A DNA stretch of 64,000 bases. Source: Acidobacteriota bacterium (GTDB taxonomy: Bacteria > Acidobacteriota > Terriglobia > Acidiferrales > UBA7541). The notes beneath the pieces are model-generated. The model was not told the DNA's origin and searched no databases. It worked only from the letters and a program-made list of their open reading frames with translations. The stretch's first letter is position 1; every line of letters begins with the position of its first letter. Where the stretch lies: NCBI GenBank assembly GCA_013289955.1, contig JABCYZ010000019.1:28090-92089 (forward strand), read 5' to 3'. Positions 1,065 to 9,661 of the stretch are shown in pieces. Made by a program: the position numbers and the translations under genes.

Positions 1065-2351
1065 CTAATCGGTGTCCGGCTCCGGGAAGATGGGTCTCTG
1101 CCCGCGTTCGAGGTCGGGCGACCCCGGCAGACGAGAAGCGCTCTCGGCGCCGCCAGATAAACCGACGCGGCTCCCCGAAACGCTTTCGCCACGGCTGGCC
1201 CCAGCCGCGGCAGCGGCAGCCTGGCGCGGCGCGCCAGCGGATGGTTCAGCCCGGTCGTACAGCCGGCCAAAAATCATCTTCCCGGCCGGCGTCTGATGAA
1301 CGGAAGTGACCTGGATATCGACGCTTTTGTTGATCAAGCGCCGCGCGCCATCGACCACCACCATGGTGCCGTCGTCCAGATATGCAACGCCCTGATTAGG
1401 CTCTTTGCCCTCGCGCAAAATCAGCACGCGCATGGGTTCGCCAGGCAACACAACGGGCTTCAATGCATTGGCAAGCTGGTTCACGTTCAAGACCGCCAGC
1501 CCTTGCACCGTGGCGACTTTGTTCAGGTTGAAGTCATTGGTGACGATCTTTGCACCGAGCTGGCGTGCGAGTTCCACCAGCTTGTGATCCACGTCTCCGG
1601 CCGGAAGCAAATCCTGCTCGAGAATGCGCACACCGACGTGCGGCATCTTCTGCATACGCTCTAAGACCTCGAGACCGCGACGGCCGCGCTGCCGTTTCAG
1701 GGAATCCGGAGAATCGGCGATAAGCTGCAATTCGCGCAGCACGAATTGCGGCACGGCTAGCACGCCATCCAGGAAATGGGCTTCAGAAACGTCTGCGATG
1801 CGTCCATCAATCAGGACACTGGTGTCGAGAAGCTTGAGGGGCCCAAGCGGCCGCGGCTCTCCGGAGGGCATTGCGGCTGGAGCGGCCACATTCAGCTTTC
1901 GGCCACTCTGCGAGCCAAGCATCAGCCCCAAATAAACGAAAGCGAAGAGCGCGGCATATTCCAGAAACGCCTTGGTTGGCTCCGGCTGGCTCGTTCGGGA
2001 AATAATGAGCGTTACCAGCAGCGCCGAAAACATGCCCCAGACTGCTCCAAGCCCGCCCCCTAGCAAGCCGCCGATTCCGGCGCGGCTCAGCCGCAATTCG
2101 GCCAGCAGGATCACCAGCGCCAGAAGAAAGCCGACACCCGCGGCAGGTGCGCCGCGCAAACCGAAAGGAGTGAGCTTGTAGCAGAGCGTGGTCGCGCCCA
2201 CGATGATAAACAAGCGCACCAGCCAAAGCTCCAAGCCCTTGCCTTGCGGGAAGGTGGACGGCTTTTTTTCTCGCTCTTCGGGGACAGGTTTTAAGGAGGG
2301 CGAAGAACCAGTGTTCGAAAAACGCTGCACTTCAGGAACGGAACGGCTCAT
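1065..2351 (-). CDS. Membrane-anchored PIN/TRAM domain protein (YacL-like)
   Basis: Four N-terminal hydrophobic segments, PIN motifs LLDTSVLIDGRI and VTNDFNLNK, TRAM region GKEPNQGVAYLDDGTMVVVD. Sits upstream of ispD-ispF as yacL does in Bacillus. True start may be TTG near 2234. Confidence 0.9.
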   Translation of the reverse strand: MSRSVPEVQRFSNTGSSPSLKPVPEEREKKPSTFPQGKGLELWLVRLFIIVGATTLCYKLTPFGLRGAPAAGVGFLLALVILLAELRLSRAGIGGLLGGGLGAVWGMFSALLVTLIISRTSQPEPTKAFLEYAALFAFVYLGLMLGSQSGRKLNVAAPAAMPSGEPRPLGPLKLLDTSVLIDGRIADVSEAHFLDGVLAVPQFVLRELQLIADSPDSLKRQRGRRGLEVLERMQKMPHVGVRILEQDLLPAGDVDHKLVELARQLGAKIVTNDFNLNKVATVQGLAVLNVNQLANALKPVVLPGEPMRVLILREGKEPNQGVAYLDDGTMVVVDGARRLINKSVDIQVTSVHQTPAGKMIFGRLYDRAEPSAGAPRQAAAAAAGASRGESVSGSRVGLSGGAESASRLPGSPDLERGQRPIFPEPDTD

Positions 2352-2539: not shown

Positions 2540-3769
2540 CTAATGAAAATAGAGACGCGGTACACGCTGGCTCACCGCGCACAGAAGATCGGAGGTCACG
2601 GTCCCAATGCTCCGGGCGATGACGTTCGCCGGGCGGACATGCTCGCCGTCACTGCCATAAATTGTCGCGACATCGCCGAGCTCGGCTCCCGGCACGTCGG
2701 TGACGTCAATCATCGTTACGTCCATGGAAATAATTCCCACGATGGGCGCCAGCGTGCCACGCACGAGAACACTGCCGCGATTCCCGAGCGAACGGTGGAT
2801 ACCGTCCCCGTAGCCGGCCGCAAGAACGGCAATGCGTGAAGGGCGCTTGGCGATGAACGTTTCGTTGTAGCCGACGCCCGCGCCTTCCGGAATGTTGCGA
2901 ATGTTGATGATGCGTGCGCGCAGGCTCATCACTGTCTTGAGCGGCAGCTTGGTTTCGATTTGTGGACGCAGCTCGACGGGATCGTAGCCAGGATGGTAGC
3001 CGTACAAAATCGCGCCAGGACGAACCATGTCGGCCCAAGTCTCTTGGCGCGTCGCAATGGCCGCGCTGTTTGCAAGGTGCACGATGCCGGGACTAATTCC
3101 GAGCGCCCGAAGACGGTCGAGCGCTTCGTAGAAACGCACTTCCTGCTGCCGCGTCTGCTGTCCGACACGCGTGTCGGCAAGGACCTCGGATGAAGCAAAA
3201 TGCGTGAACACGCCGCCTAATTCGAGATGCTGGCATTTGTCCAGCTGGCGTGCAAAACATTCCATGTCACTCGGCGCGATGCCCAGGCGATTCATGCCCG
3301 TGTCCATCTTCAGATGGAAGGAAACGCGCTTGCTGCCCTTCCGGGCGCCTTTCTTGGCAAGGACGCGAGCAGCGGCGCGATCAAGTAGCTTGAGCTGCTC
3401 GCAACGATGGATCACGGCCGTCAGATCGTATTCGAGAAGGCGCGACTCTTCGCCAGGCCAGAAACTTGTCAGCACAAGCACGGGCTTCCGGACACCGGCT
3501 TCGCGCACGGCGATGCCTTCTTCCGTGCAGGTGACGCCGAACCAGTCCGAGCCGGCTTTTTCGAGTGCCTCGGCCACTTGCGGGCCGCCATGGCCGTAGC
3601 CGTTGCCTTTGACGATGCAGAGGATTTTGCGGAGCGTCCTGCGCTTCTCTTCTGGAGGATTCACGAACTTGCGAATCGCGCGAAAATTTTCGGCCAGCGC
3701 GCTGAGGTCAACTTCCGCCCATACCGGACGCCTTGCTTCTTTCAGGAGACTTTTCTGTTTGCTCGACAT
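2540..3769 (-). CDS. alr: Alanine racemase
   Basis: PLP-Lys motif VKGNGYGHG, HLKMDTGMNRLG, HLANSAA, VRPG, GVGY and GIISMD. Confidence 0.96.
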   Translation of the reverse strand: MSSKQKSLLKEARRPVWAEVDLSALAENFRAIRKFVNPPEEKRRTLRKILCIVKGNGYGHGGPQVAEALEKAGSDWFGVTCTEEGIAVREAGVRKPVLVLTSFWPGEESRLLEYDLTAVIHRCEQLKLLDRAAARVLAKKGARKGSKRVSFHLKMDTGMNRLGIAPSDMECFARQLDKCQHLELGGVFTHFASSEVLADTRVGQQTRQQEVRFYEALDRLRALGISPGIVHLANSAAIATRQETWADMVRPGAILYGYHPGYDPVELRPQIETKLPLKTVMSLRARIINIRNIPEGAGVGYNETFIAKRPSRIAVLAAGYGDGIHRSLGNRGSVLVRGTLAPIVGIISMDVTMIDVTDVPGAELGDVATIYGSDGEHVRPANVIARSIGTVTSDLLCAVSQRVPRLYFH

Positions 3770-3939: not shown

Positions 3940-4101
3940 ACTTACAGCGCCTGTAAGTATTTTAGAATCAACATCTGCAAAGACAGCTCCTAAAAAGCGG
4001 ATTCTAAAAGATTTAACCTCACCACGGCCTCGAGCAAATCCTGACGAAGGCGAGGCCATTCGGGAACGGCACTGTGTAAGATTGCGTGGGGATTCTTACA
4101 C
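3940..4101. repeat. Cluster of short inverted repeats in the alr-fic gap
   Basis: ACTTACAG-cgc-CTGTAAGT (3940-3958); TTTTAGAATC (3960-3969) / GATTCTAAAA (4000-4009); GGCCTCG..CGAGGCC (4026-4057); GTGTAAGA-N12-TCTTACAC (4074-4101). Confidence 0.7.
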
Positions 4102-4425
4102 GGAGATCGGATCAGGGCGGGAAATGGTTTGGGGCTTCAAATAGCAGAACGTCGGCGGCATGGGATTCAAGCCATCGTAAGCAAGGGTGATGGACTGCGA
4201 GTTCTTGAGTTCGGTGAAGGTCCTATCGAAGCGAAAACGGTCGGCGTGCTGTAGCTTTTGGAGGCCGTCACGTTGGCCCGATGGGCGACACTCTCAGCAA
4301 CGGAGTGCTCAAAACCAATTCGACGACTCTCTCGGCATCGGGTAGGAAAGAGCAGCCTCCAGGCCGATTTCCGGGGTCCGCGAGGCTCTGTAAGCTGCTG
4401 TATTTTTGTGACTTATCTCAGAAAG

Positions 4426-4497
4426 AGCATGATATGCTTGTATTCGTACGGCATTATTAGCTTGTAATAGCACGGCACAATATGCTTGTGACGGCCC
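4426..4497 (+). repeat. Three degenerate 24-bp tandem repeats upstream of the fic gene (candidate operator)
   Basis: agcatgatatGCTTGTattcgtac / ggcattattaGCTTGTaatagcac / ggcacaatatGCTTGTgacggccc. GCTTGT starts at 4436, 4460 and 4484. Adjacent units match at 17/24 and 16/24. Confidence 0.75.
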
Positions 4498-4515
4498 GGA
4501 GCACGGTGAGAGTTT

Positions 4516-6054
4516 ATGGCGGCACCGAACGAAAAACTGGCTGAATCTCTCGCTGAACTCAAAGAGCTTCAGGCGGGCGGGAGACGTGTGTTCCGCTCCG
4601 GGGACTTAAGCCGCGTTCACCGCGAGCGCCTCGTGGCAAACGGCTTTCTCCTGGAAGTGATGAAAGGGTGGCTCATTTCATCGAGCCCCGGCGCGCGCGC
4701 GGCCGACAGCACTCCGTGGTATGCGTCATTCTGGGAATTCTGCGCACGCTATTGTGACCAGCGGTTCGGCGACCAGTGGCATCTTTCCGCGGAGCAGTCG
4801 CTTTGGCTGCATGGCGAGAAAACCGTTATCCCGGAGCAGGTGGTGGCGAACAGCCCGAAGGGCACGAACCACACGATCAACCTCCTCTTCGGCACGTCTC
4901 TCTACGACCTGAAGGTGCCTGACATGCCGCCGGCGCCGAATCTCGTGATGAGAGACGGCCTGCGCCTGCTCTCGCCGGCGGCGGCGCTCGTGGGAGTGGG
5001 GGAGACTTTTTTTGCGCGGAATCCTGTGGAATCACAGGTAGTGCTGGCGAGCCTCGCCGACGCGTGGGACCTGCTTCGGCTGCTGCTCGACGGCGGCAAT
5101 TCGACAAAGGCGGGTTATCTTGCCGGCGCGTTCCGGCGCATCGGGGGCGCGGGACTGGCGGACGAGATTGTCCGCTCGATGAAGCGCGCCGGATACGATG
5201 TACGTGAAAGCGATCCGTTCGAAACCGGTCAGACAATTGGCAGGCCCAGGCCGGGGGCCGCGCCGATCGTAGGCCGCCTGGAGATGATGTGGCACGCGAC
5301 GCGCGACACGATCATCAAGAATTTCCCGAAGGCGCCGGGGGTGCCGAAGGACAGCGGCGCGTATCTGCAGGACGTCGATGAAATCTACCAGAGCGATGCG
5401 TACCACTCGCTGTCGATCGAAGGCTACTCAGTGACGCCGGATCTGATCGAGAAGGCGCGGCAGGGCGAGTGGAACCCGGACTGGAATGAAAGGGACCGCA
5501 GAGACCGCGACGCGCTGGCGGCGCGCGGTTACTGGCAGGCATTCAAGGTCGTGAAAGAATCGGTGAGCAAGGTTCTGAGGGGTGAAAATCCCGGCGCGCT
5601 CGCGCGCGCGGAACAGAAGGATTGGTACAGGGAATTGTTCCAGCCCTTTGTGACGGCGGGCTTGCTTCGCGCGGGCGATCTAGCCGGATACCGGAACAAT
5701 GCTGTCTACCTGCGAACGTCACGGTATGCACCGCCGCGGTGGGAGGCGGTGCGCGACGCCATGCCGGCGTTCTTCGATCTCCTCGAAAAAGAAACCGAGC
5801 CGTCAGTGCGTGCGGTGCTCGGGCACTGGCTATTCGGCTACATTCATCCGTATCCGGACGGAAACGGCCGCATGGCCCGCTTCCTGATGAACGTGATGCT
5901 GGCGGCGGGCGGCTATCCGTGGACGGTCATTCGCGTGCGGGACCGCAACGCATACTTGAGCGCGCTCGATCGCGCCAGCATAGATATGGACATCAAGCCG
6001 TTCACGACGCTCACGGCGCAGCGCGTGCGCTGGGCCCTAGAGAAGCACGCCTGA
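4516..6054 (+). CDS. Fic family protein with a long N-terminal (AbiEi-like) region
   Basis: Canonical Fic motif HPYPDGNGRMAR. Inhibitory (S/T)xxxE(G/N) motif SLSIEG N-terminal to the Fic core (class II). Confidence 0.92.
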   Translation: MAAPNEKLAESLAELKELQAGGRRVFRSGDLSRVHRERLVANGFLLEVMKGWLISSSPGARAADSTPWYASFWEFCARYCDQRFGDQWHLSAEQSLWLHGEKTVIPEQVVANSPKGTNHTINLLFGTSLYDLKVPDMPPAPNLVMRDGLRLLSPAAALVGVGETFFARNPVESQVVLASLADAWDLLRLLLDGGNSTKAGYLAGAFRRIGGAGLADEIVRSMKRAGYDVRESDPFETGQTIGRPRPGAAPIVGRLEMMWHATRDTIIKNFPKAPGVPKDSGAYLQDVDEIYQSDAYHSLSIEGYSVTPDLIEKARQGEWNPDWNERDRRDRDALAARGYWQAFKVVKESVSKVLRGENPGALARAEQKDWYRELFQPFVTAGLLRAGDLAGYRNNAVYLRTSRYAPPRWEAVRDAMPAFFDLLEKETEPSVRAVLGHWLFGYIHPYPDGNGRMARFLMNVMLAAGGYPWTVIRVRDRNAYLSALDRASIDMDIKPFTTLTAQRVRWALEKHA

Positions 6055-6222
6055 ACTCGGGCGAGCTGAGGAAGCGAAAGGGCTCAAGGGAGGAGCGAGC
6101 CGAACGCGGTCCATACTTATCAAGGGCTTAGGAACGAGGAGCGCAATCACCCGTCTCCGGGCCGCCGCTACAGATTCACCGGAACAAAATGAAATAACCA
6201 GAATCGTGCTGCGTGGTATCTA

Positions 6223-8058
6223 ATGGTCGGTCGTAAGAGCGGGGTTGCTCGCTCCCTTGGGAGGACTTCGATGGGATGGTTCGGCAGGTATCGGGCGCTT
6301 CTGTCTTTTGTTGGCGCGATTGGGGCGGTGTGCATATTCGGATCGCTCGTGTCGGTAGGAAGTCAGCCCAAGGCCGTCATGGCGGCGGGTGAGGCTTGTG
6401 CGAACGATGACAGCGGGTTGAAGTTGCCGGCGGGTTTTTGCGCCTCCGTATTTGCGGACGGAATCGGGCATGCGCGGCACATGGCGGCGTCAGCGAACGG
6501 AGTTTTGTATGTGAACACCTGGTCGGGACGATATTACGGCGACGACACGCCTCATGCCGGTGGGTTCCTGGTGGCGCTGCAGGACAAAGCGGGCGCGGGC
6601 AAGGCGGATGTCAACGAGCGGTTTGGCGAGACGGTCGAGAGCGGCGGGCACGGCGGGACGGGAATCGGTCTCTACAAGGATTTTGTTTATGTGGAGAGCA
6701 ACGATCGGATCGTGCGGTACGCGTTGCAGGGTGGAGCGGTTGTGCCGGGTGGAGCGGCGGAGACGATTGTTTCGGGATTGCCGCTGACCGGCGACCACCC
6801 GATGCACCCTTTTATTATTGATGCGCGCGGAGCGATGTATGTGGACGTGGCCAGCGCGACGAATTCCTGCCAGGGGAAGAATCGCACGCTGAAATCGCCG
6901 GGAATCGATCCGTGCACGGAATTGGAGACGCGCGGCGGAACCTGGAAGTATGACGCGAACAAAACGGGTCAGACATTTTCTCCGGCGGAACGATACGCGA
7001 CGGGAATTCGCAATGGGGAAGGGTTTGCCTTCGACGCCTCGGGCCGGCTGTTTGTGACGCAGCATGGGCGCGATCAACTCCATACGAACTGGCCCGAGTC
7101 TTACAAGCCGGACCAGGAGGCGACGCTGCCAGCGGAAGAGGTGGTGTTGCTGAAAGAGGGCGGAGACTACGGATGGCCGGAGTGTTACTACGATTCGTTT
7201 CTGAAGAGGCTGGTGCTTGCGCCGGAGTATGGCGGCGACGGAAAGAAGACTGGAGTTTGCGCAAAGAAGATCGAACCGGCGGCGGCGTTCCCGGCGCATT
7301 GGGCGCCAAACGGGATGGCGCATTACGACAAGGATCAATTTCCGGCGCGCTACCGCAATGGATTGTTTATCGCCTTCCATGGATCGTGGAACCGGGCACC
7401 GTATCCGCAGCAGGGATACAACGTGGTGTTTCAGCCGATGGCGGGAGAGCACGCTTCGGGACGGTGCGAGGTATTTGCGGAGGGATTCGCAGGAGCAGTG
7501 AAGTCGCCGGATGGAGCCGAGCATCGACCGAGCGGGTTGGCGGTGGGACCGGACGGGGCGCTCTATGTTTCTGATGATGTGCGAGGGCGGATTTACCGGA
7601 TTGTGTATCGCGGCGGGGCGTTCGATGAGAAGTCGGTGACCGCGTGCCCGAGCCCGACGGCGGGGCCGGGGGCAGTGGCTCAGGAGGCGGCCAAGCCGCC
7701 GGAAGGGACGCATCCGGATGCGGGCGCCGCCGCAAATCGAAAGCTTGCTGTGCCGCAAGGCGCGACCCGGGAAATGGTCGCGCTAGGGGAACGGGTTTAC
7801 CACGGACAGGCGGGCGGAGCGGCGTGCATGGGGTGCCACGGCGCGAGCGGGCAGGGGACGACGCTCGGGCCGCCGCTGCTCGGCAAGAAATGGTTGTGGA
7901 GCGATGGGAGTTTTGAAGGGATTACGAAGACGATTAACGACGGAGTGGCGCAGCCAAAGGAGTACCGGAGCCCGATGCCGGCGAAGGGCGGGGCGGAGCT
8001 TACCGACGAGCAGGTGAAGGCGGTGGGGGCCTACGTGTGGAGCCTGAGCCACCAGTAG
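6223..8058 (+). CDS. Glucose/sorbosone (PQQ-type beta-propeller) dehydrogenase fused to a C-terminal c-type cytochrome
   Basis: Signal/anchor segment; ATGIRNGEG, TQHGRD, GGDYGWP, FHGSWNR and RPSGLAVGPDGALYVSDD; C-terminal CMGCH with downstream MP axial ligand. Start may be ATG near 6271. Confidence 0.85.
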   Translation: MVGRKSGVARSLGRTSMGWFGRYRALLSFVGAIGAVCIFGSLVSVGSQPKAVMAAGEACANDDSGLKLPAGFCASVFADGIGHARHMAASANGVLYVNTWSGRYYGDDTPHAGGFLVALQDKAGAGKADVNERFGETVESGGHGGTGIGLYKDFVYVESNDRIVRYALQGGAVVPGGAAETIVSGLPLTGDHPMHPFIIDARGAMYVDVASATNSCQGKNRTLKSPGIDPCTELETRGGTWKYDANKTGQTFSPAERYATGIRNGEGFAFDASGRLFVTQHGRDQLHTNWPESYKPDQEATLPAEEVVLLKEGGDYGWPECYYDSFLKRLVLAPEYGGDGKKTGVCAKKIEPAAAFPAHWAPNGMAHYDKDQFPARYRNGLFIAFHGSWNRAPYPQQGYNVVFQPMAGEHASGRCEVFAEGFAGAVKSPDGAEHRPSGLAVGPDGALYVSDDVRGRIYRIVYRGGAFDEKSVTACPSPTAGPGAVAQEAAKPPEGTHPDAGAAANRKLAVPQGATREMVALGERVYHGQAGGAACMGCHGASGQGTTLGPPLLGKKWLWSDGSFEGITKTINDGVAQPKEYRSPMPAKGGAELTDEQVKAVGAYVWSLSHQ

Positions 8059-8293: not shown

Positions 8294-9661
8294 CTACATG
8301 TCGCCGGGCGAGAATTGGGAGAAGGCATCGGGGGCGGCTTCCTCGAAACGCGTGAGGCGGCTGCGGAAGACGAATTTTACGTTGTCGGTCGGGCCGTTGC
8401 GCTGCTTGGCGATGCGGAGTTCGGTTTCTTCGCGTTCTTCGGGGCTGGCACCGGCTTTGAAGAAGTGGGGGCGGTAGATGAACATGACGACGTCGGCATC
8501 CTGTTCGATGGCGCCGGATTCGCGGAGGTCAGAGAGCTGAGGGCCGCGTTCGTCGCGCTCGGGGGCGCGGGTGAGCTGGCTGAGCACGAGCACAGGGATT
8601 TGCAATTCTTTCGCGAGGCCTTTGAGTCCCCGGGAGATGCTCGCGACTTCTTCCTGACGGTTTCCGAAGCGGCCGCGCGCGGTGATGAGCTGGAGATAAT
8701 CGACGATCAGCAGGGAGAGGCCTTTGTCGCGCTTGAGGCGGCGCGCTTTGGCGCCGATTTCCAGGACGCTAATGGAGCCGGCGTCATCGACCCACAGAGG
8801 GGCGTTGGAGATGACGCCGAGAGCTTCCGTCATGCTCGTCCAGTCGTTGCGATTCAGGTGGCCGGTGCGGAACTTGTGCGCATCGATCTGTGCGACCGAG
8901 GCGACCAGGCGCTGCAGGAGAGACTCCTTGGACATTTCGAGGCTGAAGATGGCCACCGGCTGGCCCGCGCGAATGGCGATGTTTTCGGCGAGGTTCAGGG
9001 CCAGCGCCGTTTTTCCCTGCGAGGGCCGCGCGGCCAGGATGAGCAGCTCGGAAGGCTGCAGGCCGGAAGTCAGCTTATCCAGCTCGACGTAGCCCGTGGG
9101 GATGCCCGTGATGCTTTTGCCTTCTTTAAAGATTTTTTCGAGGCGCTCGAAATTGTCGCGGACGATGTCCTTGACCGGAATCAAGCCGGCTTTCACGCGG
9201 TCTTCGGCAAGCAGGAAGATGGAGGATTCCGCGTTGTCCAGGATCATGTCGGCGCCGTCTTCGCCTTCAAACGCGCGCTGCTGGATGTTGTGCGTGGTGT
9301 GTATCAGGTTGCGCAGCATCGCCTTTTCCTTGACGATGCGCGCGTAGTGCTCGATGTTGGAGACCTTCGGCATGCCGTCGGCAAGAGAAGCGAGATACGG
9401 CGCGCCTCCCGAGGCCTCCAGATCGCCACGGCGATGGAGCTCTTCGGTGAGTGTAATCAGATCGATGGCTTGCTGGGCTTCGCTGAGAGCAATCATCTGC
9501 GTAAAGACGCGGCGGTGCTGGTCTAGAAAGAAATCCTCGGCCCGCAGATTTTCTATCGCGGCGTTCAAGGCGTTGTTGTCGAGCAAAATGGCGCCAAGGA
9601 CGGAGCGCTCGGCGTCCAGATTGTTCGGCAACGGTTTTTCTAGTGTCGTGTCAACGGACAT
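8294..9661 (-). CDS. dnaB: Replicative DNA helicase
   Basis: AERSVLGAIL, Walker A AARPSQGKT, FSLEMS, VDYLQL, SDLRESGAIEQDAD and KQRNGP. No intein. Confidence 0.98.
   Translation of the reverse strand: MSVDTTLEKPLPNNLDAERSVLGAILLDNNALNAAIENLRAEDFFLDQHRRVFTQMIALSEAQQAIDLITLTEELHRRGDLEASGGAPYLASLADGMPKVSNIEHYARIVKEKAMLRNLIHTTHNIQQRAFEGEDGADMILDNAESSIFLLAEDRVKAGLIPVKDIVRDNFERLEKIFKEGKSITGIPTGYVELDKLTSGLQPSELLILAARPSQGKTALALNLAENIAIRAGQPVAIFSLEMSKESLLQRLVASVAQIDAHKFRTGHLNRNDWTSMTEALGVISNAPLWVDDAGSISVLEIGAKARRLKRDKGLSLLIVDYLQLITARGRFGNRQEEVASISRGLKGLAKELQIPVLVLSQLTRAPERDERGPQLSDLRESGAIEQDADVVMFIYRPHFFKAGASPEEREETELRIAKQRNGPTDNVKFVFRSRLTRFEEAAPDAFSQFSPGDM

Follow-up and report, generated by a model that had tools for sequence, protein, structure and literature searches.

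An acidobacterial AbiEi-fold/Fic fusion that very probably binds the tandem repeats in front of its own gene

What kind of element is a single gene that joins a candidate DNA-binding module to a Fic domain and begins just behind a set of tandem repeats? The question is raised by a 512-residue open reading frame (ORF) at 4516-6054, on the plus strand with an ATG start and a TGA stop, within the 64,000-nucleotide stretch of an Acidobacteriota genome that we analysed (contig JABCYZ010000019.1; hereafter the window). An initial annotation, drawn up from the letters of the window, had described the ORF as an AbiEi-like regulator fused to an autoinhibited Fic toxin and had placed repressor, toxin and operators together in one accessory locus. 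We find that one residue of the protein changes in step with one base of the repeats at 135 loci, and because of this the protein very probably binds its own 24-bp repeats, as judged by the comparison of sequences. The reading that we favour for the locus as a whole, and consider probable, is that of a self-contained mobile cassette in which an autorepressing AbiEi-fold/Fic fusion plays a toxin-antitoxin-like or abortive-infection role.

Residue 119 and the repeat array

The putative operator array consists of three head-to-tail 24-nucleotide repeats (4427-4450, 4451-4474 and 4475-4498; together 4427-4498, plus strand) and ends 17 nucleotides before the ATG. The motif CAYNATNNRCTTGTR occurs three times within it and once more, with a single mismatch, elsewhere in the 64 kb, giving four occurrences in total against 0.63 expected. 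Eighty relatives with 66-76% protein identity were retrieved from species-representative genomes, some of them on megabase-size contigs, and nearly all loci carry 24-nucleotide tandem repeats. The number of repeats per relative locus ranges from three to six and is most commonly four (51/79 loci), the array ends some 15-25 nucleotides 5' of the start codon across loci, and the family consensus unit is rGCAyaATAtrCTTGTAttngcAC.

Position 11 of this unit, which immediately precedes CTTGTA, is occupied by G or A at a ratio of 57:43 across loci, and repeats of the same locus agree at it in 97% of pairwise comparisons; at every other variable position the uniformity within loci does not exceed chance expectation. 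Gene conversion was rejected as the source of this uniformity, position 11 being the only uniform one. Every column of the protein alignment was scored by its mutual information with the G/A class of position 11. Residue 119 is His in 41/41 G-type loci and Asn in 30/30 A-type loci (71/71), and its mutual information of 0.98 bit equals the full class entropy. The next columns, 112 (0.53) and 121 (0.50), lie within the same beta-hairpin, residues 108-122 (QVVANSPKGTNHTIN; 4837-4881, plus strand), which we propose as the base reader and in which the window has the His119 codon CAC at 4870-4872. The best column of the Fic domain reaches 0.43 bit and the best of the winged helix 0.39 bit. Linkage through recombination at the 5' end is an unlikely cause of the covariation, as residues 1-62 are nearer to the repeats and reach only the latter value.

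In a neighbour-joining tree calculated without the hairpin columns, the class switches at least 12 times independently. A hold-out set of metagenome loci, retrieved with a different query, comprises 33 His-G and 31 Asn-A loci (64/64), which brings the total to 135, and the loci missed by the repeat finder likewise obey the His-G/Asn-A rule. The one apparent exception in the hold-out set has another hairpin type, GARNK with an inserted Arg, together with a CGCCTA/CGCTTA core, like locus L083. L083 and L162 form a rare subtype with a GARNN or GARNK hairpin, again with the inserted Arg, and have a CGCCTA or CGCTTA core in all four repeats. Residue 119 is Asn, Gln, Lys, Arg, His, Ser or Thr in the wider family; Gln119 is found with TATTGT cores in two otherwise distant proteins and Lys119 with AyCCTA cores in two loci.

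His with guanine and Asn with adenine are the pairings given in textbooks as side-chain preferences. Taken together, these observations provide strong computational evidence that the hairpin, which belongs to the second domain of the N-terminal module, contacts the core of the repeat. Distant relatives (42-55% identity) have their own 23-24-nucleotide repeats with different cores, as do relatives on viral contigs (42-53% identity), each with its own repeats of 23-24 nucleotides. Across the distant relatives the half-site GCAyaAT and the sequence of the winged helix are both conserved, suggesting that the winged helix may read GCAyaAT about one turn away from the core read by the hairpin.

Around the array, a Shine-Dalgarno-like GGTGAGAG lies 3 nucleotides before the ATG (4505-4512, plus strand), and relatives have GAGAG or GGAG at the equivalent place. 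The leader 5' of the repeats (4386-4426, plus strand) is conserved in the closest relatives only (L001, L004 and L005) and is possibly part of the promoter; the boundary of blastn homology falls at 4386-4391 in the closest loci versus 4421-4437 in most others.

The N-terminal module and the Fic domain

The full-length AlphaFold model of the 512-residue protein has a mean predicted local distance difference test (pLDDT) value of 93.8 and a predicted template-modelling (pTM) score of 0.91, and a model of the N-terminal module, built on the alignment from an exhaustive search with residues 1-250, reaches a pLDDT of 95 and a pTM of 0.88. The model begins with a winged helix-turn-helix (wHTH) at residues 1-62 (4516-4701, plus strand; helices 4-18 and 33-41, strand 25-27 and wing strands 45-55), which Foldseek matches to the AbiEi wHTH. 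The second domain, defined by AlphaFold and Foldseek, spans residues 63-235 (4702-5220, plus strand) and is alpha/beta over residues 63-224. A linker of lower confidence (residues 236-249, pLDDT ~85; 5221-5262, plus strand) leads to the Fic domain. The comparison with AbiEi that the initial annotation had called for gave the S. agalactiae AbiEi structure 6Y8Q as the top Foldseek match in the PDB (E 6.9e-5, probability 1.0), followed by the AbiEi-family protein Rv2827c of M. tuberculosis (1ZEL; E 4e-3, probability 1.0). Both alignments span the two domains over 234-269 columns, and all later matches have E>=0.06. The predicted structure thus gives support, at the level of the fold, to an AbiEi fold for the N-terminal 235 residues, outside the detectable AbiEi sequence families. 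The N-terminal strings in which the AbiEi likeness had first been seen are all present in the ORF (RERLVANGFLLEVMKGWL at residues 36-53, LSAEQSLWLHG at 90-100 and DGLRLLSPAAALV at 147-159).

The C-terminal half contains a FICD-like class II Fic domain (residues 250-511; 5263-6048, plus strand), assigned from Pfam, PADLOC and matches to FICD in both sequence and fold. The Pfam Fic family (PF02661) matches residues 368-462 with an E-value of 9.7e-14 and 52.4 bits against a cut-off of 24. Both motifs that had been picked out from the letters of the window are borne out. The catalytic motif HPYPDGNGRMAR at residues 444-455 (5845-5880, plus strand), with His444, fits HxFx(D/E)GNGRxxR, and SLSIEG at residues 298-303 (5407-5424, plus strand), with Glu302, fits the inhibitory helix (S/T)xxxE(G/N) in the same chain and N-terminal to the Fic core. 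By sequence the best solved relative is human FICD (5e-17), the helix of which places YHTVAIEG opposite YHSLSIEG, so that the motif aligns with the TVAIEG of FICD; a fold search with the full-length model returned FICD, C. elegans Fic-1 and BT_2513 as top matches. From the intact motif, the Pfam match and the FICD-aligned inhibitory helix we conclude that the C-terminal half is an intact class II Fic domain and a putative AMP transferase. Among family proteins the Fic motif is intact in 145/147 and the inhibitory motif in 147/147. Matches to more specific models are partial or weak: the PADLOC SoFic model covers residues 290-507 only (profile positions 56-263 of 361), the NCBIfam SoFic model gives 25 bits against a cut-off of 550, and the NCBIfam mob_myst_B model matches at 2.7e-4, far under its cut-off.

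A one-gene cassette and its surroundings

About 80 loci are homologous to the window over the repeats and the gene alone, from 4386/4437 to approximately 6049, and the flanks are unrelated. At about 70 loci the two nearest ORFs on each side contained no recurring gene family, and the nearest ORFs included no small antitoxin, AbiEii or separate DUF1488 gene as a conserved partner; a tblastn search with the DUF1488 tail that most close relatives carry at the C-terminus found it fused only, never as a separate nearby gene. As homology ends at the repeats and the gene, and no neighbour recurs, the conserved unit is the repeats plus one gene, in agreement with the single-gene system first described. 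The 80 relatives are mostly from Acidobacteriota, with others from Verrucomicrobiota, Spirochaetota, several Proteobacteria and one cyanobacterial metagenome-assembled genome. Soil metagenomes hold thousands of close relatives, assigned to Acidobacteriota, Proteobacteria, Verrucomicrobiota, Spirochaetota and Cyanobacteriota, and the exhaustive search with the N-terminal module yielded 1,230 clusters at 50% identity. The source annotations of relatives read 'Fic', 'fido', 'DUF1488' or 'hypothetical'. To judge from these comparisons, the cassette is horizontally mobile and consists of one gene with its own repeat array, patchily distributed across phyla.

Some relatives adjoin Gabija, SIR2, ArdC, relaxase or integrase genes. 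The locus L002 (9859-16191) lies beside a Gabija pair (a GajA-like OLD/TOPRIM ATPase and a UvrD helicase), a SIR2-domain protein and a restriction-type helicase, with ArdC and ParB-like genes upstream, a defence-island or mobile-element context. Two further loci depart from the usual architecture. L091 (327-1825), from a low-GC organism, holds a split relative in which a gene for a 237-residue AbiEi-fold protein is followed after 6 nucleotides by a gene for a 259-residue Fic protein, the break falling exactly at the interdomain linker; three 24-nucleotide repeats with a ATTACTCC core lie upstream. This is a single contig and a frameshift is possible. The order of the pair, with the gene for the N-terminal module first and the Fic gene behind, resembles a classical toxin-antitoxin operon. 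In L089 (894-2688) a stand-alone AbiEi-fold protein of 250 residues, with Gln119, has four ACTATTGTAAT-type repeats upstream and a polyphosphate kinase 2 gene behind it in place of the Fic domain, which hints that the repressor and operator module can pair with other cargo.

In the window the upstream neighbour is alr (alanine racemase; 2540-3769, minus strand), and the cassette is followed by a glucose/sorbosone-dehydrogenase-cytochrome c gene on the same strand (6223-8058, plus strand) and, beyond it, by dnaB (8294-9661, minus strand). In E. coli alr and dnaB are direct neighbours, so that the Fic cassette looks inserted into a housekeeping block; the cassette, and perhaps also the dehydrogenase gene, look like insertions into the series ispD, PIN-TRAM, alr, dnaB, prs, ispE. 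The PIN-TRAM gene (1065-2351, minus strand), which adjoins ispD, encodes a YacL-like protein of 428 residues with PIN and TRAM domains that resembles an ordinary housekeeping gene product more than the toxin of a toxin-antitoxin system. No tRNA genes were found in the whole window. The atypical G-rich codon use ascribed to the ORF was not borne out: its GC content is 0.63 versus about 0.60 in the flanks, and its GC skew is no higher than that of the next gene. The intergenic region between alr and the cassette (4001-4500), which holds the AT-rich repeats, drops to a GC content of 0.53.

Mechanism, alternatives and known systems

Two precedents guide our view of the array as operator and of the protein as its own repressor. 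Full-length AbiEi represses its own promoter (PMC3985639), and CccR of Y. pseudotuberculosis, a Fic protein with a helix-turn-helix (HTH), acts as the repressor of its own promoter and owes its toxicity to the AMPylation of FtsZ (PMC9755527). On this model one protomer would occupy each 24-bp repeat, the winged helix reading the GCAyaAT half and the hairpin the rCTTGTA core approximately one helical turn away, with His119 in contact with the G at position 11. Head-to-tail filling of the three repeats, ancestrally four, would repress transcription of the gene and keep the enzyme level low, and the AMP-transferase site of the FICD-like Fic domain would be gated by its own Glu302. Loss of either repression or autoinhibition would then release AMPylation of a cellular target, leading to growth arrest. 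DNA binding might also switch the Fic enzyme itself, by analogy with CbFic2 of C. burnetii, in which it switches the activity between AMPylation and deAMPylation (PMC10628234). The anatomy, the folds, the conservation of the array together with the gene and the residue-base covariation are established by computation; from these we infer the repression, the single protomer per repeat, the half-site given to each domain, the toxicity, the target and the trigger. Autoregulation through the repeats appears highly probable from the sequence comparisons; a role in toxin-antitoxin function or defence we put forward tentatively, at a little under an even chance. It is doubtful, if attractive, that the family represents a previously unrecognised class, a single-chain module in which the AbiEi fold, bound head-to-tail along the array, both shuts off transcription and holds the AMPylase inactive. 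On this view the single hairpin residue 119 would determine operator specificity (His for G, Asn for A, Gln and Lys for other cores), and its repeated flips would prevent cross-repression between cassettes present in one cell; were it so, the specificity switches would create something like incompatibility groups, here for a gene of defence.

A number of observations weigh against the favoured reading. The likeness to AbiEi is at the level of the fold only, with moderate TM-scores of 0.42-0.52: Pfam, NCBIfam and PADLOC models gave no match to residues 1-250 at E<=1, no AbiEi Pfam family was found among 60 diverse members of the N-terminal module at E<=0.01, the family profile retrieved no AbiEi from the PDB sequences at E<=10, and hhalign of the module profile against 273 neighbouring proteins, including one PADLOC AbiEi, gave a probability of at most 3.6%. 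Since the sequence and profile methods are blank and Foldseek is positive, it is the fold that carries the likeness, and of the AbiEi assignment in the initial annotation the structural part holds and the sequence part does not. Perfect as it is, the covariation with position 11, which gives substance to the operator array first proposed, shows in silico that the repeat sequence is recognized, but speaks neither for repression as the outcome nor strictly for DNA over RNA. A consensus scan of 4000-6300 found no sigma-70-like promoter; a -35 TTGACT in the third-last repeat with a -10 TAATAT in the second-last was considered and set aside, a spacer of 15 nucleotides making it too weak to claim. 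No RNA sequencing run contained the locus.

The Fic domain and the genomic setting raise points in the same direction. Several distant lineages have exchanged the catalytic His for Lys, Arg, Gln or Tyr, and these (P0136, P0163, P0174, P0188 and P0245; loci L084 and L086) have kept the N-terminal module, SLSxEG and the upstream repeats. Such subfamilies look like pseudo-enzyme lineages on their sequences, and as the rest of the cassette is kept around a dead Fic site, the family can dispense with AMPylation. That the inhibitory Glu is never lost would suit an enzyme that is regulated or deAMPylating just as it would suit a toxin. Ordinary genes make up most neighbourhoods, with defence and mobile-element genes scattered among them as judged from per-family counts, and the window copy itself sits between alr and dnaB amid the housekeeping genes ispD, prs and ispE, so that a defence-island setting does not apply to it. 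Finally, the window copy may be decaying, a matter to which we return below.

Several of these points could also be accommodated by a dedicated autoregulated regulator or sensor. Its Fic domain, as a (de)AMPylase or a sensor of nucleotides, would adjust DNA binding or modify a housekeeping target reversibly in the manner of FICD, and would not be a toxin. The inhibitory Glu of FICD is needed for deAMPylation, and its counterpart is present in 147/147 proteins. The lineages with a dead Fic site retain the DNA-binding module and the repeats, and both the housekeeping surroundings of the window copy and the ordinary ones of most relatives would suit such a function, as would the precedent of CbFic2, a DNA-switched bifunctional Fic enzyme. 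Yet the only operator to be found in the 64 kb belongs to the gene itself, neither a second copy of the cassette nor further operators having been found there, and with no regulon beyond itself in this stretch a regulator needs an effector function. The patchy distribution and the transfer between phyla are also more like those of selfish or defence modules, and some copies lie beside Gabija, SIR2 and mobile-element genes. We therefore regard the regulator as unlikely, but as an alternative to be taken seriously.

The derived state of the window copy suggests a different alternative, namely that it is a decaying remnant without current function, close to a pseudogene. Most close relatives are about 605 residues long and end in a DUF1488 (PF07369) domain, which has a unique fold and a function that is not known (PMC2954204). 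The window ORF stops at EKHA* and lacks the PF07369 domain, making the whole ORF a truncated form of the ~605-residue ancestor. Alignment of window positions 6040-6100 with L001 and L024 reveals that a deletion of about 238 nucleotides and a frameshift of 1 nucleotide removed the domain, leaving a piece of the old C-terminal tail, now out of frame (…SGELRKRKGSRE), at 6055-6093 on the plus strand. The closest relatives have four repeats versus three in the window, where, compared with the four-repeat loci L001 and L024, the third unit is a recombinant that combines the head of ancestral unit 3 with the tail of ancestral unit 4. At codon 184 (5065-5067) the window has Trp, and most of the family as well as same-lineage variants from other soil samples have Ser; the S184W change may be damaging in the window allele. 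The polymorphisms of the window lineage, 7 synonymous versus 10 non-synonymous (10/17), are signs of relaxed constraint as far as sequence can tell.

Against decay, the 512-residue frame is open with both motifs intact, and the truncated form recurs: at least four independent samples contain it, as does a 512-residue cluster of 27 sequences with 98% identity. Contigs from four independent soil-metagenome runs cover both the array of three repeats and the 3' truncation junction gap-free, and the locus, with its shortened array and its truncation, is no assembly artefact. Among the more distant relatives about half have a natural length of 511-531 residues and no DUF1488 nearby, and together with the 512-residue cluster they indicate that the short form is viable. 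A remnant without function is thus improbable.

That the repeats act as RNA, either as a leader for translational control or as a processed repeat RNA that neutralizes the enzyme in the way of the type III antitoxin ToxI, is suggested by a tandem array directly 5' of a putative toxin gene and by the inability of covariation alone to separate DNA from RNA. We consider it highly improbable: no terminator was found between the repeats and the gene and no Rfam match, the predicted fold of the leader is no more stable than that of shuffled sequence (z = +0.32), the AbiEi winged-helix fold has duplex DNA as its known substrate, and a Fic protein is no endoribonuclease. A type III toxin-antitoxin system of the ToxIN kind was rejected likewise, there being no terminator, Rfam family or RNA structure and the protein being a Fic enzyme. 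Least credible of all, with hardly any weight, is that the repeats are bound by another factor, as host-factor sites, iterons or recombination sites, and are associated with the gene incidentally, for although plasmid iterons are similar tandem direct repeats of ~22-24 bp, the match of residue 119 to position 11 is perfect and repeatedly evolved over 135 loci, no neighbour gene is conserved, and gene and repeats are carried together from one unrelated context to another.

The favoured reading, an autorepressing AbiEi-fold/Fic cassette, concerns a large uncharacterized family, as the 1,230 clusters of its N-terminal module at 50% identity attest. The operator code deduced in silico offers a sharp and cheap entry to how AbiEi-fold proteins read DNA, and it points to the second domain, beyond the winged helix alone, as a reader of bases. 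The cassette also provides a compact natural system in which to study how DNA binding, autoregulation and the AMPylation switch of a FICD-like enzyme might be linked. If a role in defence or addiction is confirmed, the cassette would add a new single-gene architecture and a clear case of repeated specificity switching. Full-text searches turned up no report of AbiEi or COG5340 in a fusion with Fic, nor any description of the family of the window protein.

Single-chain fusions of toxin and antitoxin are familiar from CapRel SJ46 and EzeT, which are one-gene accessory modules. The window protein is like them in that a toxin and neutralizing or regulatory domains would share one polypeptide; the domains, however, are unrelated, and the antitoxin domains of CapRel SJ46 and EzeT are no DNA-binding autorepressors with an operator array. 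The mobile mystery proteins A and B (TIGR02612/TIGR02613) similarly pair an HTH regulator with Fic on mobile DNA, an arrangement that the split relative L091 recalls, but their HTH is of the XRE type and they are two genes, and the window protein falls under the mob_myst_B cut-off. FICD/HYPE shares the Fic motif and the N-terminal inhibitory helix (S/T)xxxE(G/N), but in place of the membrane anchor and TPR repeats of FICD the window protein has its DNA-binding module.

The AbiEi proteins (COG5340) have the same two-domain fold, an N-terminal winged helix followed by a second domain, and sites in their own promoter region. For AbiEi repression requires the full-length protein, a basic surface over both domains is needed, and Dy et al. 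proposed one monomer per 23-bp site (PMC3985639), close to the 24-bp repeat of the window. AbiEi differs in having one 23-3-23 inverted pair, whereas the window family has three to six direct head-to-tail repeats; the window family, moreover, is outside the detectable AbiEi sequence families, has no AbiEii (DUF1814) nucleotidyltransferase partner and has the module fused to Fic. SoFic, CccR and CbFic2 likewise combine a Fic enzyme with DNA binding in one polypeptide, SoFic being a single-gene Fic abortive-infection defence (PMC12249575). Their wHTH is C-terminal, and no tandem 24-bp operator array is mentioned in the portions of these reports that were consulted, whereas the corresponding part of the window protein is N-terminal, has two domains and adopts a predicted AbiEi fold; nor does the window protein have the SoFic defence architecture of Fic plus a C-terminal wHTH with a match to the full-length model. 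Fic enzymes fused to DNA-binding domains, as in SoFic, CccR and CbFic2, and AbiEi as an autorepressor are thus already known, and what the present family adds is an N-terminal AbiEi-fold module on a FICD-like Fic domain, a putative operator of tandem 24-bp direct repeats and a rule that pairs one residue with one base.

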